This document shows, in pieces, positions 10,604 through 24,529 of a DNA stretch of 31,491 nucleotides. Where the stretch lies: the NCBI GenBank assembly GCA_903832165.1, contig CAILAQ010000043.1:1-31491 (forward strand), written 5' to 3'. A model generated the notes under the pieces. The model did not search any database, had not been told where the DNA came from, and saw only the letters and a list, made by a program, of their open reading frames with translations. Source of the DNA: an uncultured Bacteroidota bacterium (GTDB taxonomy: Bacteria > Bacteroidota > Bacteroidia > Bacteroidales > UBA12481). Position numbers and translations under genes: made by a program. Each line of letters begins with the position of its first letter. Positions within the stretch are counted from its first letter, which is position 1.

Positions 10604-11539
10604 ATGTTCGATAACCTGGAAATTCTCGATTCTATCCGCCTGAATTTCAGTCCCGCAGGTTTGATTATCATGAACTTCACCATGGCGGTCATTATGTTCG
10701 GTATCGCTCTGGATCTGAATATCAAACAATTTCGTGAAATCATCGAACAACCTAAATCCTTGATAACCGGACTGGTATCTCAGTTCATACTCCTTCCGGC
10801 CGTTACCTTTCTGCTCATAAAAATAATTAACCCCTCCCCCGCCGTCGCTCTTGGTATGATCCTGGTGGCTGCCTGCCCCGGCGGAATCATCAGCAATTTC
10901 ATCACTTCCCTGGCAAAAGGCAACGTGGCACTCTCCATCAGTATGACCGCGTTCACCACCATCGCTGCAATCATTCTCACGCCTGCCAATTTTGCCCTCT
11001 GGGGATATTTATATGCCAGAACCTCTCCACTGCTCCGGCCTCTCCAAATCGACCCGCTGCAGATGTTCCTGACGGTGCTTATCCTGATGGCCATTCCTAT
11101 CACCCTCGGCATCCTCTTTACCCGCTATTTTCCCGATACGGCAAAGAAAATCATGAAACCTTTCCGCATCTTCTCCTTTCTGGCCTTCGTTGCCTTCGTT
11201 GTCATGGCTTTCTCAAATAATTTCGACCATTTCCTGAATTATGTCCCCGCGATATTTGTTATTGTTTTGATACATAACGCACTGAGTACTTTCACCGGCT
11301 GGTCGGCTGCCAAAATTATGAAACGCCCCCAAAGAGATATCCGCTCGATAGCCCTCGAAACAGGTATTCAGAACAGCGCACTCGGACTCATCCTGATATT
11401 CAATCCGAAAATATTCCCCCCGGATCTCGATCTGGGCGGAATGGCCTTCATCGCCGCCTGGTGGGGTATCTGGCATATCATTGCCGGACTGATCCTGGCC
11501 GGGCTCTGGTCGAAAAGGCCTTTATCTGTTGTACCCTGA
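10604..11539 (+). CDS. Bile acid:sodium symporter (BASS) family transporter
   Basis: MFGIAL.L, ACPGG.ISN, GNVALS.SMT, ETGIQNS; about 9 hydrophobic segments. Confidence 0.9.
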   Translation: MFDNLEILDSIRLNFSPAGLIIMNFTMAVIMFGIALDLNIKQFREIIEQPKSLITGLVSQFILLPAVTFLLIKIINPSPAVALGMILVAACPGGIISNFITSLAKGNVALSISMTAFTTIAAIILTPANFALWGYLYARTSPLLRPLQIDPLQMFLTVLILMAIPITLGILFTRYFPDTAKKIMKPFRIFSFLAFVAFVVMAFSNNFDHFLNYVPAIFVIVLIHNALSTFTGWSAAKIMKRPQRDIRSIALETGIQNSALGLILIFNPKIFPPDLDLGGMAFIAAWWGIWHIIAGLILAGLWSKRPLSVVP

Positions 11540-11557: not shown

Positions 11558-12913
11558 ATGAGAAAAGTTGAAAATTTTACATTTGGATACCTGTTCGTGA
11601 GGCTATGGCCAAGATTCTCCTTCAAGCATATTTTTTACCGCCGGACAGAAATCCGCGGACTCGATAAATTCCGCAGTAACGATCCGCTCATTTTTGCCCC
11701 CAATCACCAGAATGCCCTCATGGACGCCCTGGTTTTCGTGACAACCCTGCCGCAGCAGCCGATTTTTCTTGCCCGTGCCGATATCTTCAAGCCAGGTCTC
11801 CTCACCCGGTTCCTGAATTTTATCAAAATGATGCCCGTTTACCGCATCCGCGATGGCTATGAAAATCTGGCCAAAAATCAGGAAGTGTTCGACCGCTGTA
11901 CCGAAATATTGCGCACCGGCCACTCCCTCTGCATGTTTCCTGAAGGCAACCACGGCGACAAGCGCTTTTTCCGCCCGCTGAAAAAAGGGTTGGCCCGAAT
12001 CGCCTTCGAAGCCGAGGACGCGTGCGACTTTAAACTTGGTCTCATGATTGTCCCTTGCGGAATCGACTATTCCAATTATGAAAATGTTCGGGGCCGCCTC
12101 ACGGTCAGCTACGGCGATCCTATCACCATAACCGATCTGAAAGAGGTGTACCGCAGCGATCCGCAAACCGCTCTCAAAGAGCTGAATAATCGCATACGAA
12201 TCAATATCGAGCCCCACATGATCGAGATCCCCTGGGAGGATATTTATTTTATGGTGATGGACCTCAGGATAATGTACGGCAAGCGCTTCCGTGAACTGAA
12301 AAATCTTCCGGGAAAAACCCTCTTCAATAAATTCGACGCAGATAAGGAGATGATCCGCATGATCGGTACCCTCCGCGAAACCGAACCGGAAAAAATTGCC
12401 AGCCTTAACAGCCTGGTGATGGAATACTGGAAACTTTTGAAGAAACACAATTTCCGCGACCACACCGTCGAAAATCAGCCATACGGACCGCTGCGCCTGA
12501 TATGGAACACCATCATACTGGCCATCGGATTTCCGCTGCACCTCTATTCCCTGATCAACAATTACCACCTGTTCCGTATCCCGATGATCCTGTCGCGCAA
12601 GCTTTTCAAGGATCCCCAGTTCTGGTCAACAGGCGCTTTTGTAATCAGCATGATCGCCATGCTGCCGCTAAGCTATGCCATTCAAACCCTCATTGTCGGA
12701 CTGATATTCAAATCCTGGTTGATCTGCCTTGCCTATTGGGCCACCCTGCTGCCCGCATCGCTGTACATGCTCCACTACATGTTCGAAAACCGCAAATGGC
12801 GCTCACGTATCCGATTCATGTGGATGAAAGGCAGGAAAAACAAGGATATTGACAGGCTGACTGAGCTGCGAAAAGAAATTTTAATCAAAATGGACGGTTT
12901 GGTTAGGGAGTAG
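11558..12913 (+). CDS. 1-acyl-sn-glycerol-3-phosphate acyltransferase family protein
   Basis: NHQNALMD (HX4D), FLARADIF, FPEG motifs; C-terminal membrane segments. Confidence 0.88.
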   Translation: MRKVENFTFGYLFVRLWPRFSFKHIFYRRTEIRGLDKFRSNDPLIFAPNHQNALMDALVFVTTLPQQPIFLARADIFKPGLLTRFLNFIKMMPVYRIRDGYENLAKNQEVFDRCTEILRTGHSLCMFPEGNHGDKRFFRPLKKGLARIAFEAEDACDFKLGLMIVPCGIDYSNYENVRGRLTVSYGDPITITDLKEVYRSDPQTALKELNNRIRINIEPHMIEIPWEDIYFMVMDLRIMYGKRFRELKNLPGKTLFNKFDADKEMIRMIGTLRETEPEKIASLNSLVMEYWKLLKKHNFRDHTVENQPYGPLRLIWNTIILAIGFPLHLYSLINNYHLFRIPMILSRKLFKDPQFWSTGAFVISMIAMLPLSYAIQTLIVGLIFKSWLICLAYWATLLPASLYMLHYMFENRKWRSRIRFMWMKGRKNKDIDRLTELRKEILIKMDGLVRE

Positions 12914-12989
12914 GTAGTACTCAGTCGGCAGTCTTCAGTACTCAGTACTCAGTACTCGGTACGACAGCATAAAGGTCCCCGCTTCAAAA

Positions 12990-13061
12990 TGTCGTGGTAA
13001 GGGGCGGGGTCCCCGCCTCCGGCTTCGCCTTCGCGGAGATGACAACTCTATCGGGGGCAAT
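12990..13061 (+). repeat. 72-bp REP-like unit, left-arm copy
   Basis: TCGTGGTAAGGGGCGGGGTCCCCGCCTCCGGCTTCGCCTTCGCGGAGATGACAACTCTATCGGGGG, inverted relative to 13433-13576. Confidence 0.9.
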
Positions 13062-13079
13062 TAGCGCGTTAAAATCTGG

Positions 13080-13370
13080 TCAAAGGGTAGAGGTGATATC
13101 GTTCCAGCCAGGGTTGGATTTGTTAATAAGGTTGTCTTTCCACTCGCGATTCCATTTTTTCAGTTGTTTCTCACGCTTAATGGCTTGATCAACATACTTA
13201 AATGACTCGTAATAAACAAGCTTACAAATGTTGTATCTCCAAGTAAATCCCGAATTCAAATGACTTTTGTATTCAGAAATTCGCCTTTTAACATCATTTG
13301 AAAACCCGACATAAATAACCTTGTTATTTTCAGTAGACATGATGTAAACAAAAAATGAATAGGTACCCAT
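13080..13370 (-). CDS. Small stand-alone GIY-YIG nuclease (Slx1/UPF0213-like bacterial group)
   Basis: FVYIM...IYVG.S.D..RR..E, KLVYYE, AIKREKQLKKWNREWK..LI.K.NP.W.D. Visibly AT-richer than its neighbours. Confidence 0.9.
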   Translation of the reverse strand: MGTYSFFVYIMSTENNKVIYVGFSNDVKRRISEYKSHLNSGFTWRYNICKLVYYESFKYVDQAIKREKQLKKWNREWKDNLINKSNPGWNDITSTL

Positions 13371-13432
13371 TTGCTTCTTTTCTCATTATAGACGCAAAAA
13401 AGTCACCCAAATGGAGAAATCTATCTTACATA

Positions 13433-13576
13433 TTTACCCCCGATAGAGTTGTCATCCCCGCGAAGGCGAAGCCGGAGGCGGGGACCCCGTCCCTTACCAC
13501 GAAATTTACCCCCGATAGAGTTGTCATCCCCGCGAAGGCGAAGCCGGAGGCGGGGACCCCGTCCCTTACCACGAAA
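13433..13576. repeat. Two identical tandem 72-bp REP-like units
   Basis: TTTACCCCCGATAGAGTTGTCATCCCCGCGAAGGCGAAGCCGGAGGCGGGGACCCCGTCCCTTACCACGAAA at 13433-13504 and 13505-13576, no mismatches. Confidence 0.95.
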
Positions 13577-13635
13577 CTACGCGGGGACCTTTACGCTGCC
13601 TTACTGAGTACTGAGTACTGAAGACTGAAAACTAC

Positions 13636-16185
13636 CTACTCCCTCACCACCTTAATCACCTTCCGGTCTTTTCCGTTAATCACTGCCACCAGGTAAACCC
13701 CCGCCGGAACCCCACTCATGTCTATCTGAACGTTGCTGCCCGACGAAAGTCTCTCTGTCTTTATCATTCTTCCGTCTAAAGTGAGCAAAGTCATCAGCAG
13801 CTCACTCTGTTCCATACTTCCTGCGGAGATGTTTAGTCTTTCCCTGCAGGGGTTAGGATAAGCCGAAACGGTAATTCCGCCGCCCGCAGCAATATCTTCC
13901 ACACCGTTGAACACAGCGATTTTGAAGTCCCAGATGCCCCGGCCGTAAGTGCTGAACCTTGCCGTACGCAACACCGGAATATAATCAACCCCCCAGTAAG
14001 TCTGCTGCGGAGCCGACAGGCCCGACAGTTCGTACCACTGATCTTTCGCCACGATATAAACCCACGGACCAACCTCGGAGGCCGCGAAAAGCAAGCTACC
14101 GTCTGAATTGCAGGTCATCTCATAAATCAGGCTGTTCTTCAGCCCTTTGTTCATCATCTGGAACGTAAGGCCCCCATCGTGCGATACCCACACAGGCGAG
14201 CCCGAATATCCGCTCCCGGCAAGCCAGATGGTGTTGATGTCGCGCGGCGACGGTACAATGCTGTTTCCATAAAAATAGTGACTGTCCGGACCGCGGTTCG
14301 TGGATTGGGTATACGTGGTGCCACGGTCGGTGGACGTGAAAAATTTACCGGACGAATTGAGCACGTAACGATAGTCTTTATTGATGGGCGAAAAAGCCAT
14401 GGAGGCAATGCGGGTATTTGGATCGCCATTGCTGAAATCCGTCGGCAGCTCGGAGTAAGTGATGCCGGCTGTGGTATAGGTGAGATACCATAAATGAGCT
14501 CCGGTAGTGGAGGTTCCACCGGCCAGATATACCCGCTCGGGGAAGTAAGGATCCGCCAGGAGAGGAGGCATCCAGTACTGATTCTTCATCTTCATATCGT
14601 CGAAACCCTTGGTCGACATGGCATTGCTTACTGAAGCATCAGGATAGTACATGGCAAATCCGGGATATACAGTCCACATGCTGTTGCCCCCGTCGCCCGA
14701 TACAATATGCCCGTAATCGCCGCTGATCGTCTGGTCGAACTTCACTGCCCTGTCATTCACCTCCCAGCTCTTCTGAAATCCCTGATCCTGCGAACCAACG
14801 TAAATTACATTTGTCTTGGTCCGATGGGTATAACTTCCATAATACTGACTGATATTCAATCCGTTAAGTGATACGTTCGTCACTCCAGCCAATTGATTTT
14901 CTGAACTATAGGATCCCCCGTCGGTGCTCACATAAGCCAGATCGGTACCATCGGGCTTTTTAAAAAACTCCACCTCTGGGATATCGGCATGAAGCTTGTG
15001 TGCCATATCACCGTAATAGTCGCCCCAGCCATTCACATAAATCCAGGTAACTCCGCCATCATTGCTGTACTGAACCTCCATGCCCCCGAAGGCAATCAGG
15101 TTCGGATTGGTTGGCGAGGCGCCGAAACTGTTCGACATGAAGGGTCCCTGGTCCACCGATCCGCGATAAGTCCAGCCGGTACCTCCTGGAGCCGATCCGT
15201 AAAAGCGGCTTGCCTTGTCGAGCCGGAACATCGCATAAAGACCGGTAACCGAGGAAATCGTGTTGCCCGCCAATTGTACCTGGTTGATTTCACTGGTGGC
15301 GAAATTCAGATTCACATCGGCAGTTTTCAGCCAGGCAGTGGAATCCTGCAGGGAGTATACCTGATTTTTATCGATCAGGTACAAGGAATCTGTGCCGAAT
15401 CTGTTCGTCCAGATATCGGACAAATTCGATCCGTTGCTTTTGACAATCCGTGTAAAAGTGGCGCCGAGATCTTTCGACCGGAACAGAAAAAGCGAGGGTG
15501 ATTTGTATGCCAGTATATAAAGAGTGCCATCGGCCTGACTCACCGAGCGAATCAGGTTGTATCCGTTATAATAGGATGATAATCCGCCGCTTAACTTCCA
15601 TGTGATGCCCATGTCGTCGGAATAATTCATGCGAACCCGGTCGTTCGATGCCAGCACTCGGGTACCACCGGCAAACGGAAAAGCTCTGATAAACTGAATA
15701 TTACTGATTCGGTAAGGATCGGAAATGGTTTTCCAGTTCTGCCCGTCGATGGTTCCCACAAAAATCTGTCCGCCATCTGCGGCTGCATACAGGCGGTTAT
15801 TGGTAAAGTCGACGTCAACACAATGCACCCGGCCAGCCAGATTGCTGCTTCCTTTTTCTATCCACTGCCCAGTCAGGGAACCATCGGCTATTCTTTCGAT
15901 CACCCCACTCTTGAGCTGTCCTGTGCGTGCGGCCTCCTGCAACGCGGGCAGCCGTTCCTGGTACATTTCGAACCTGGTCTGCTGGTCCATTTCGCGCCAG
16001 TCAACTCCTGGTGCGGCCTGGTGCATGGCATCAATCCACTCCTGCCTTTTGATTTGGTTATCAGATTCTTCGGACATAATTTCAACCGGCTGCGGCTTAA
16101 CAGTTTGTTTCGTGAGCAGAAGTCCTGTAAAAACTGCCGTGCCGGCTATCAGCAGCGTGACAGCCAAATAAATATATCGCTTCAT
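13636..16185 (-). CDS. T9SS-secreted BNR/Asp-box beta-propeller (VPS10-like) protein
   Basis: Signal/anchor MKRYIYLAVTLLIAGTAVF; Asp-boxes SDDMGITW, SKDLGATF, SNDGGVTW, STDRGTTY, SHDGGLTF; CTD AYPNPC...GVYLV...KVIKVVRE. Confidence 0.8.
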   Translation of the reverse strand: MKRYIYLAVTLLIAGTAVFTGLLLTKQTVKPQPVEIMSEESDNQIKRQEWIDAMHQAAPGVDWREMDQQTRFEMYQERLPALQEAARTGQLKSGVIERIADGSLTGQWIEKGSSNLAGRVHCVDVDFTNNRLYAAADGGQIFVGTIDGQNWKTISDPYRISNIQFIRAFPFAGGTRVLASNDRVRMNYSDDMGITWKLSGGLSSYYNGYNLIRSVSQADGTLYILAYKSPSLFLFRSKDLGATFTRIVKSNGSNLSDIWTNRFGTDSLYLIDKNQVYSLQDSTAWLKTADVNLNFATSEINQVQLAGNTISSVTGLYAMFRLDKASRFYGSAPGGTGWTYRGSVDQGPFMSNSFGASPTNPNLIAFGGMEVQYSNDGGVTWIYVNGWGDYYGDMAHKLHADIPEVEFFKKPDGTDLAYVSTDGGSYSSENQLAGVTNVSLNGLNISQYYGSYTHRTKTNVIYVGSQDQGFQKSWEVNDRAVKFDQTISGDYGHIVSGDGGNSMWTVYPGFAMYYPDASVSNAMSTKGFDDMKMKNQYWMPPLLADPYFPERVYLAGGTSTTGAHLWYLTYTTAGITYSELPTDFSNGDPNTRIASMAFSPINKDYRYVLNSSGKFFTSTDRGTTYTQSTNRGPDSHYFYGNSIVPSPRDINTIWLAGSGYSGSPVWVSHDGGLTFQMMNKGLKNSLIYEMTCNSDGSLLFAASEVGPWVYIVAKDQWYELSGLSAPQQTYWGVDYIPVLRTARFSTYGRGIWDFKIAVFNGVEDIAAGGGITVSAYPNPCRERLNISAGSMEQSELLMTLLTLDGRMIKTERLSSGSNVQIDMSGVPAGVYLVAVINGKDRKVIKVVRE

Positions 16186-23130: not shown

Positions 23131-23188
23131 TTTTAGGGTATATCCACGGTTTGATATTATTTCTACTTTAACCCAAAATTTAAAGGCT

Positions 23189-24529
23189 ATGAAAAATCGG
23201 AGAGATTTTCTGAAAACGGCAGCTTTATCAGCAATTGGTGTAGCTGCTGCTCCTGCATTAAATGCCGCGGTTAGGGACGGGGTCCCGACTTTGCATAGTG
23301 CCGCGGTTAGGGACGGGGTCCCCGCCTCCGGCTTCGCCTTCGCGGGGATGACAAAAGATGGTGCAGAGCAGATTCAGGCTGATCTGTTGAAAAATTTGCC
23401 GGAAATTGTGCGGGAAGATTACCTTGCGCGGCAGGAAAAGGCCCGCGAATGGATGCTTAAATCGAACATTGATGCCCTATTCGTAGAGGGAGGAAATAAT
23501 CTGGGCTATTTTACTAATACCGCATGGTGGAGCAGTGAGCGGGTTTTTGGCTTCCTCCTGAGTCCGCATGCTGAGATGGTCTGGATCTGTCCGGCCTTTG
23601 AAAAAGCACGTGCTGAGGAAGTTATCGAGTATGGTAAAGATATCAGGGTATGGCATGAGCATGAGAGCCCCTACTCTATTTTCGCTGATTACCTGAAATC
23701 AATCGGCAAGCCGGGCGGAAAAATCGGAGTCGACCCCAATGCCCGTAGTTTTGTGAATGAAGGAATCCGCAGAGCTGGTGGTGCGCAGGTGGTTGATGGT
23801 TCCGTGATTACCGAAAATACCCGGGCCGTGAAAACAGCCAAGGAAATTCAATTAATGGATGTGGCCAACCGCATTACAAAGCTGGCCTTCAAAAAAGGAT
23901 TCGCTCAGCTGCATGAAGGAATGACTACCGGTGAGTTCAGCAAGATAGTTTCTCAGGCTCATACCGATATGGGTGTTTTGGGCGGCGGCGGACCGCTCTT
24001 CGGTACCAACGCCGCTTTTCCGCATGGAACAAAATTTATTAAAACCCTGGAGCAGGGCGATGTGGTGTTAGTGGATGGTGGTTGTTCGTTAAAAGGTTAT
24101 AAATCAGATGTTACGCGAACCGCCATCTTAGGCAAGCCATCCGATGAGCTGAAAAAGGTATTTGAAACGGTATGGAATGCCCAGCAGGCAGCCTTTAAAG
24201 CGATACATAACGGAGCGATTTGTGGCGATGTGGATGCTGCAGCACGCAAGGAAATGGCTAAGGGCGGATATGGCGCCGACTATGAATATTTTACTCATCG
24301 CCTGGGTCATGGTATCGGTACTGAAGGCCACGAATTTCCATATCTGGTAAGAAATAATAAACTGAAAATGACTACCGGAATGACCTTTACAAACGAGCCG
24401 GGACTCTACCTGTACGGTAAGTTTGGCGTGAGAATCGAGGATTCACTGGTGGTGACCGATAACGGCTGCAAAATTCTCGGCGGCATGCCTTGTTTGTCGA
24501 TGGATAATATACTCAGTGATTCTCTGTAG
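23189..24529 (+). CDS. Tat-exported Xaa-Pro peptidase (M24B family) carrying an in-frame REP insertion
   Basis: MKNRRDFLK twin-arginine signal; metal ligands VD.G, SDVTRT, HRLGHGIG.EGHE, TNEPG, GVRIED. Confidence 0.9.
   Translation: MKNRRDFLKTAALSAIGVAAAPALNAAVRDGVPTLHSAAVRDGVPASGFAFAGMTKDGAEQIQADLLKNLPEIVREDYLARQEKAREWMLKSNIDALFVEGGNNLGYFTNTAWWSSERVFGFLLSPHAEMVWICPAFEKARAEEVIEYGKDIRVWHEHESPYSIFADYLKSIGKPGGKIGVDPNARSFVNEGIRRAGGAQVVDGSVITENTRAVKTAKEIQLMDVANRITKLAFKKGFAQLHEGMTTGEFSKIVSQAHTDMGVLGGGGPLFGTNAAFPHGTKFIKTLEQGDVVLVDGGCSLKGYKSDVTRTAILGKPSDELKKVFETVWNAQQAAFKAIHNGAICGDVDAAARKEMAKGGYGADYEYFTHRLGHGIGTEGHEFPYLVRNNKLKMTTGMTFTNEPGLYLYGKFGVRIEDSLVVTDNGCKILGGMPCLSMDNILSDSL
23263..23354 (+). 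repeat. In-frame REP-like unit preceded by a partial duplicate
   Basis: 23305-23354 matches the GIY-YIG-associated unit at 49/50. TGCCGCGGTTAGGGACGGGGTCCC occurs at 23263 and 23299 (36-bp period). Confidence 0.92.

Follow-up and report, generated by a model that had tools for sequence, protein, structure and literature searches.

A dispersed hairpin repeat in frame behind the Tat signal of an M24 peptidase gene in a lake Bacteroidota genome

The peptidase locus and its repeat segment

The window analysed here is one whole contig, C43 (GenBank CAILAQ010000043.1; 31,491 nucleotides, nt), of the metagenome-assembled genome (MAG) GCA_903832165.1, a 4.9-Mb assembly of 955 contigs with 45.7% G+C that was obtained from lake-water metagenomes and is assigned to an uncultured Bacteroidota bacterium. 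It carries the gene of an M24 Xaa-Pro peptidase with a twin-arginine translocation (Tat) signal, and a copy of a dispersed hairpin repeat lies in frame between this signal and the folded part of the enzyme (Table 1); the segment is shared by four species of the genus and is most simply read as one ancestral insertion. The frame is open from the ATG at 23189 through 24529, and the orthologues begin at the same MxNRR as this start. Pfam places Creatinase_N at residues 81-214 and Peptidase_M24 at residues 222-424; the orthologues keep the neighbouring gene order of radical-SAM gene, peptidase, polysaccharide-synthesis gene and dUTPase gene. Scored with the NCBIfam Tat-signal model TIGR01409, the N-terminus reaches 17.5 bits over residues 3-24, above the cut-off of 16.7, and TatC is encoded on contig C437 (213 bits); a twin-arginine signal and the Tat machinery, as expected for a Tat-exported protein, are thus both present.

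The repeat segment consists of a partial head module followed by a complete hairpin unit. The first 24 nt of the head module (23263-23286) are identical to 23299-23322, at a spacing of 36 nt. The core of the unit, 43 nt at 23310-23352, recurs unchanged on the minus strand at 13451-13493 and 13523-13565, and with two mismatches on the plus strand at 13001-13043, a match that was seen in none of 100 shuffles; hairpin and tail (23315-23352) are identical to other copies in the genome. Over 53 nt, 23302-23354 matches 13449-13501 at 96%, with differences at 23304 and 23308, which leaves 49 of 50 identical positions over 23305-23354. An earlier reading of the window from sequence only had pointed to this 49/50 match with the reverse complement of the unit at 13433-13576, to the 24-nt partial copy at a 36-nt period, to the intact frame behind the twin-arginine signal and to a nuclease gene about 10 kb away; each of these holds, the distance from the GIY-YIG nuclease gene to the peptidase repeat being ~9.9 kb.

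About 29 residues of the peptidase are coded by the repeat; with about 5 fewer residues in the native linker, the net gain over the 422-aa orthologues is 24 aa. In the AlphaFold2 model the predicted local distance difference test score (pLDDT) stays below 50 over residues 4-59 and, from about residue 70 on, is mostly ~90 or higher, and the repeat-coded residues are predicted to be disordered and outside the fold. With the Pfam domains starting at residue 81, the insertion lies outside the folded core, as is usual for Rickettsia palindromic elements (RPEs). A literature search for the repeat-derived peptide string VIPAKAGI returned nothing.

Table 1. Features of the window, and in-frame copies of the repeat elsewhere in the genome
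Feature	Position	Strand	Basis or remark
Gene of the Tat-signal M24 Xaa-Pro peptidase, 446 aa plus stop	23189..24529	+	Pfam, orthologues, synteny
Twin-arginine signal peptide, residues 1-26 (MKNRRDFLK...APALNA)	23189..23266	+	TIGR01409
Partial head module plus full hairpin-repeat unit, between Tat signal and folded part of peptidase	23263-23354	+	in frame
Head module: 5' repeat part, left hairpin arm alone (short-loop type, CCCGAC), then 12-nt joint	23263..23298	+	codes roughly AAVRDGVPTLHS
Complete terminal unit, long-loop variant	23299..23354	+	codes roughly AAVRDGVPASGFAFAGMT
Hairpin: 7-nt arms 23319-23325 and 23342-23348, 16-nt loop containing a 3-bp mini-stem	23319..23348	+	predicted DNA folds, both strands; family covariation
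In-frame ATG (Met54) from repeat tail; internal start possible but unlikely	23348..23350	+	read from sequence
96-aa single-domain GIY-YIG nuclease gene (Ssn-like), inverted repeat copies on either side	13080..13370	-	Pfam GIY-YIG, E = 1.2e-16
Repeat copy left of GIY-YIG gene, oriented as the peptidase copy	12985..13072	+	sequence match
Two tandem 72-nt repeat units right of GIY-YIG gene	13431..13575	-	sequence match
In-frame copy, FeoA-FeoB linker			orthologue alignment made
In-frame copy, oxidoreductase, linker of Fer4_20 and NAD-binding domains			orthologue alignment made
In-frame copies, two sites, M1 peptidase sorted by the type IX secretion system (T9SS)			orthologue alignment made
In-frame copy, loop in GH92 N-terminal domain			
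In-frame copies, less certain: pyrroloquinoline quinone (PQQ)-propeller protein, epimerase, glycosyltransferase, 1166-aa open reading frame			

Empty sites, carrier clade and selection

The modal orthologue of the peptidase is 422 aa long and lacks the segment, and all of the orthologues are Tat-signal proteins. At eight syntenic loci (seven from genomes of the same genus, one on a metagenome contig) the site is empty, with nothing repeat-like in it; the insertion is therefore in frame and absent from orthologues, again as in RPEs. The site itself is a hypervariable linker that runs from the signal to the first conserved motif. The sequence-only reading had placed the repeat in a tolerant linker and had expected an indel of ~28-30 aa relative to the orthologues; the linker is indeed hypervariable and the segment is missing from the 422-aa orthologues, however the net difference is 24 aa. 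That reading would have failed if orthologues from repeat-free genomes had the same peptide, and the syntenic 422-aa proteins do not.

The four carrier species (G000, the source of the window, with G005, G009 and G014) form one clade, (G005,(G009,(G000,G014))), in a tree of the mature domain with support of 87/90 at the base and 100/99 inside. All four have their right-hand junction and downstream linker in common; taken together with the single clade, this makes one ancestral insertion the simplest history. The architectures differ: G000 has the head and a long-loop unit, G014 a long-loop unit only (36 nt shorter than G000), G009 a degraded head (15 nt shorter) and a short-loop unit, and G005 the head and a short-loop unit (12 nt shorter). 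The indels among these architectures (36, 15 and 12 nt) are all multiples of three, while head periods elsewhere often are not.

Between G000 and G009 the gene is near synonymous saturation: its synonymous divergence (dS) is ~1.2 overall, and the mature part has a dS of 1.18 and a non-synonymous divergence (dN) of 0.036; across codons 1-22 of the signal there are eight synonymous changes and no non-synonymous change. The signal peptide is thus under purifying selection in the carriers, and a signal kept by selection requires that translation run through the repeat into the enzyme; the repeat segment is therefore probably translated. The insert behaves otherwise. Over just 20-25 codons, its proportion of non-synonymous differences (pN) is 0.18-0.26, against 0.04-0.07 in the mature part (~3-7 times), and its proportion of synonymous differences (pS) is 0.31-0.37, against 0.59-0.63. 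The insert peptide therefore appears to be weakly constrained, and the lowered pS suggests that the insert DNA is more conserved than the other synonymous sites of the gene; raised pN together with lowered pS is suggestive of a repeat that is maintained as DNA and not as peptide.

The motif TAC[CT]TT[AG]ACCC.AAAT is conserved 10-25 nt before the peptidase ATG (23160-23188, and at the same position in loci L004-L013), in repeat carriers and non-carriers both. A Bacteroidota -7 promoter element that leaves a very short leader is one possibility, and would agree with a translation start at 23189.

The repeat family

A profile search of the source genome with nhmmer returned 149 matches at 135 loci on 101 contigs, in keeping with the dispersal that the sequence-only reading had proposed; 29 of the matches lie within 150 nt of contig ends, and the repeat is probably responsible for part of the assembly fragmentation. 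The copies are modular, with zero to three head modules at periods of 31-36 nt, each ending in the left hairpin arm alone. The terminal unit comprises the head core GGGACGGGGTCCC, a G+C-rich stem of 6-7 bp, a loop, and the tail ATGACAA, to which a further short extension is often added. The loop is 4 nt long in 67 copies and 16 nt long in 42. The stems covary, as CCCCGC/GCGGGG in 66 copies, TCCCGC/GCGGGA in 34, CCCCGT/ACGGGG in three and CCCGAC/GTCGGG in two. Four to five of the six frames are free of stop codons at the repeat loci, compared to two to four for random segments of equal length.

The unit is a single asymmetric hairpin with dissimilar ends; its exact ends and any target-site duplication could not be defined from the intergenic copies of G000 set against G014 and G009, which are too diverged and leave gaps that are not clean. 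An Rfam scan of 12800-13750 at E values up to 1 found no family. Of the 19 species genomes of the genus, nine, G000 among them, each have 6 to 60 matches to the 13-nt head core, and the other ten have zero to three; outside the genus, a single match was found, in one of the 119 other families of the order that were sampled. The summed depth of Logan contigs in run X1 is ~1230 over the repeat core (23308-23341) and 6-9 on its flanks, so that the repeat is very abundant across the sampled community and not in this genome alone.

Composite loci are often edged by 7-nt tandem units of the types ACTGAGT, ACTGAAG and ACTGCCA (12900-12982 and 13581-13649 of the window, and many other contigs of the genome, among them C103, C230, C406 and C473), and a second conserved module (GGTACGA...AAAGGTCCCCGC) also borders them; given these bordering elements, the mobile or mosaic unit as a whole may extend beyond the hairpin unit. 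On contig C406 (~11060-11090, locus L057 of G000), close to a main-family copy, lies a second hairpin repeat, GTCATTCCTGCGAAAGCAGGAAC, which resembles the Neisseria NTS and suggests that the G000 genome holds more than one family of Ssn-related motifs (SRMs).

Variant tracking and other in-frame copies

The peptidase copy is of the variant that dominates the genome in each carrier species. Long-loop copies number 38 in G000 (at up to one mismatch), 26 in G014, four in G009 and none in G005; the short-loop CCCGAC type has 26 copies in G009, eight in G005 and two in G000. The G000 segment is a mosaic, with a short-type arm in its head beside a long-loop unit. The copies in site B of the M1 peptidase and in FeoAB show the same lineage split as the peptidase copy; the oxidoreductase copy of G009 breaks it with a CCCCGC stem, so that the match to the dominant variant holds in three of the four genes compared. 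Stem changes at orthologous intragenic sites are compensatory, except for one unpaired stem position each in the oxidoreductase and FeoAB of G009, and they alter the peptide (VPAFAGMT, VPTFVGMT, VPASGFAFAGMT).

The sequence-only reading had asked whether other proteins carry the repeat-derived peptide, and at least eight further in-frame loci were found in seven other real or likely genes of the genome, four of them in linkers between recognised domains. The intragenic copies are read in several frames and in either orientation; some form tandem arrays with a 48-nt period, others inverted pairs. Genes with Pfam or orthologue support hold about nine of the 135 loci (~7%) in frame; this share is far under bacterial coding density, and selection presumably removes most genic insertions.

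In the M1 peptidase linker array size varies widely among species: the protein of G005 (locus L053, on that genome's contig C43) has some five repeat-derived units arrayed in frame (VPAFAGMTEKG..., VPTFVGMT...), and the proteins of G008 and G018 show one minimal unit each at this position. The FeoA-FeoB linker of G018 (L029) contains three tandem tag-sense units at a 48-nt period, translated as FSVIPAKAGTVIPTAP repeats; in G008 this linker combines one degenerate tag-sense unit with an antisense one, and in G010 an antisense unit with a VTPAKAGA stretch. The FeoAB orthologue of G009 (contig C33:28258-30690, L027) is reported with one internal TGA, which a pseudogene, an assembly error or two genes could explain.

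The GIY-YIG nuclease genes

GIY-YIG is the sole catalytic Pfam domain of the 96-aa protein encoded in the window; a T5orf172 match is weaker and overlapping, and NCBIfam gives weak matches alone, to generic GIY-YIG-containing families. The only other GIY-YIG paralogue of the genome lies on contig C61 (3990-4277). Both genes have repeats within 28-122 nt on both sides.

Interpretation and alternatives

The favoured explanation, which is held with good confidence, is that a single composite insertion into the peptidase linker was kept in frame and is translated as an unstructured spacer, and that its hairpin is maintained by conversion or templated repair. A composite copy (head module and hairpin unit) would have entered the variable linker between Tat signal and catalytic body once, in the common ancestor of the four species, to be remodelled later. 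Frame-preserving versions would have survived because the unit is free of stops in four to five of the six frames and the site tolerates any sequence. The segment would now form a spacer of ~29 residues at or near the very N-terminus of the mature, exported enzyme, probably without a function of its own. Retention of the hairpin, together with the dominant variant in three of four genes, points to gene conversion or templated repair from other copies, which would keep the intragenic hairpin variant current; the trigger is hypothesized to be an Ssn-like nuclease that cuts the single-stranded hairpin. Each conversion would rewrite a few residues, as in VPTFVGMT versus VPASGFAFAGMT.

Several points weigh against this explanation. 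The sequencing runs listed as matching the window are of lake-water DNA, available as contigs, with no RNA run among them. The in-frame Met54 could in principle start a protein without a signal, and the insert statistics come from the few codons given above. Its folding energy does not set the hairpin apart from shuffled GC-rich sequence (z -0.1 to -1.2), so that covariation alone speaks for it, and repeated re-insertion at the same spot could stand in for conversion. Logan contigs of two samples cross without mismatch from the signal peptide to the repeat, another stretch of contig leads out of the repeat to the mature part, the two junctions being confirmed separately, and no empty-site allele is present among the Logan contigs placed on the window; however, no single Logan contig bridges the whole repeat, as the contigs break inside it, and the continuity of the segment is provided by the MAG contig and the assemblies of three relatives.

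The breaks, and the fragmentation of the MAG into 955 contigs with 29 repeat matches near their ends, would allow the segment to be an assembly artefact, either a repeat-mediated chimera or a collapsed join; this is scarcely credible, as a single syntenic gene supplies both flanks, the assemblies of G005 (on a 200-kb contig), G009 and G014 contain homologous insertions, and Logan contigs from two samples enter the repeat without mismatch. It is also very improbable that the repeat is non-coding, with translation starting at the 23348 ATG or downstream, the Tat frame surviving as a relic, and the repeat serving as a 5' leader or hairpin. The ATG in the repeat tail is in frame, within a GMT at the Met54 position, in all four carriers, and many repeats annotated at the N-termini of open reading frames are, according to PMC3733652, really extragenic. 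Against a downstream start, which the sequence-only reading had itself raised as an objection, stand the eight synonymous and zero non-synonymous changes in a signal that still passes the Tat model, the insert indels in multiples of three, and the Tat signals of all orthologues. A GC-rich hairpin immediately before an ATG is, moreover, a poor initiation context in Bacteroidota.

A peptide kept by selection at the protein level, as a new signal-peptidase site or as a spacer that aids Tat export or maturation, would account for in-frame retention across dS > 1, and the small residues encoded by the head module (xSA|A) are reminiscent of cleavage motifs; it is nevertheless improbable, since constraint on its amino acids is relaxed, its length and content are species-specific (G014 is without the head and that of G009 is degraded), the same peptide occurs in unrelated cytoplasmic and secreted proteins, and most orthologues do without it. 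Independent hits on a hot spot by the variant locally active in each lineage, which would make gene conversion unnecessary, are unlikely but deserve more weight. They would explain the agreement between the peptidase variant and the genome-dominant variant in each species, and the FeoAB and oxidoreductase linkers do hold copies of differing orientation and frame across species, which shows that they were hit recurrently. The carriers of the peptidase segment, however, are monophyletic and alike in right-hand junction and downstream linker, the mosaic of G000 (short-type left arm, long-loop unit) is better explained by partial conversion, and the same lineage split recurs at two further orthologous sites (M1 peptidase site B and FeoAB).

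A broader proposal, which extends the single-insertion explanation and is offered tentatively, is that intragenic copies stay live as hairpins and are periodically overwritten by a spreading variant, perhaps by way of templated repair that Ssn triggers, while a small set of linkers, behind signal peptides and between domains, is hit time and again in both orientations. If true, the repeat family would steadily produce and edit linker peptides in the exported and multi-domain proteins of the genus, rather than doing so by occasional accident.

Significance

The peptidase provides a clean multi-species case of selfish hairpin DNA turned protein sequence, in a free-living Bacteroidota rather than in the endosymbionts from which the phenomenon is chiefly known. 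In the four-species series selection appears to admit triplet indels only, and the conserved feature even inside the gene would be the DNA hairpin and not the peptide. Linker peptides such as VRDGVP...GMT or VIPAKAGT should be recognized as repeat-derived in annotation. For Ssn nucleases, the intragenic copies would be natural target sites at which effects on replication, recombination and transformation could be measured.

Comparison with known repeat systems

Judged by its layout, the repeat is placed in the CGTC/TGTC-tagged class of repetitive extragenic palindromic (REP) sequences, also called Ssn-related motifs, as a loop-expanded relative and not a textbook member. The strict SRM pattern does not match at 23255-23365 nor at the copies beside the GIY-YIG gene, and does match once loops of up to 18 nt are allowed, which is the reason for this filing; genome-wide, the strict pattern has 49 matches, compared to 16-25 in shuffles. 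In their published description, CGTC-tagged REPs carry the tag CGTC or its variants TGTC and CCTC, Bacteroidetes are among the five host phyla, CGTC-1 is the Neisseria dRS3, CGTC-1 and CGTC-4 correspond to RPE-6 and RPE-4 of Rickettsia conorii, and loop lengths have exceptions in some taxa (Di Nocera et al. 2013, PMC3733652). The present repeat shares with the class the hairpin, the (C/T)GTC terminal tag followed by AT, the G+C-rich stem and the short tail, the minus strand of 23319-23356 opening TGTC-AT with the stem next; like the class, it is dispersed, high-copy and mostly intergenic, with an in-frame minority.

It differs from that class in stem and loop. The class has stems of 8-9 bp, complementary A/T at the first two positions, and loops of 4-5 nt (PMC3733652); the peptidase copy has a 7-bp stem (TCCCCGC/GCGGGGA) in which a T-A pair closes and the preceding A stands opposite a C, and a 16-nt loop that falls outside the class range, whereas 67 paralogues have 4-nt loops. 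The head extension with its core GGGACGGGGTCCC in tandem arrays of 31-36 nt periods is a further difference, and no site immediately following a Tat signal is described in the passages of PMC3733652 that were consulted. In-frame intragenic copies coding 20-30 residues, often as dimers or groups, are already published there (PMC3733652); the finding is therefore less novel than the sequence-only reading implied, and no new kind of element is revealed.

The window shows the arrangement known from Ssn nucleases, in which hairpins of the dRS3-containing NTS and of related SRM types stand on either side of the genes of these small GIY-YIG enzymes, of clade cd10448, and are cut by them as single-stranded DNA, on one strand only (Chenal et al. 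2025, PMC11893778). The GTCAT-stem-GAAG-stem core of the present repeat resembles the NTS, and inverted copies bracket the 96-aa GIY-YIG gene, as they do both paralogues. The intragenic share, however, is ~7% here, compared to 2% for the NTS in N. meningitidis, for which in-frame copies are not discussed (PMC11893778), and the GIY-YIG proteins of this genome are putative nucleases.

RPEs had been cited by the sequence-only reading as a precedent, and the relation is closer than analogy, since RPE-4 and RPE-6 are classed in the CGTC-tagged superfamily, which the present repeat resembles in tag and hairpin layout (PMC3733652). Both systems place selfish palindromic DNA in frame in genes that are unrelated, where the fold can accommodate it because it falls in loops, linkers and termini (Ogata et al. 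2000, as cited in PMC10969869 and PMC3733652). RPE-1 is unlike the present repeat in measuring ~100-150 bp and in lying outside the CGTC class, and Rickettsia is an obligate intracellular alphaproteobacterium while the host here is a free-living lake Bacteroidota. MITEs, or miniature inverted-repeat transposable elements (ERIC, BOX and cyanobacterial types), are likewise small non-autonomous repeats that at times form translational fusions, according to a review (PMC10969869); they differ in that neither terminal inverted repeats nor a target-site duplication is definable here, and in that the associated enzyme is a GIY-YIG nuclease and not a transposase. What is specific to the present case is the Bacteroidota host, the site directly behind a Tat signal, and the triplet-only remodelling across four species with variant tracking in coding DNA.

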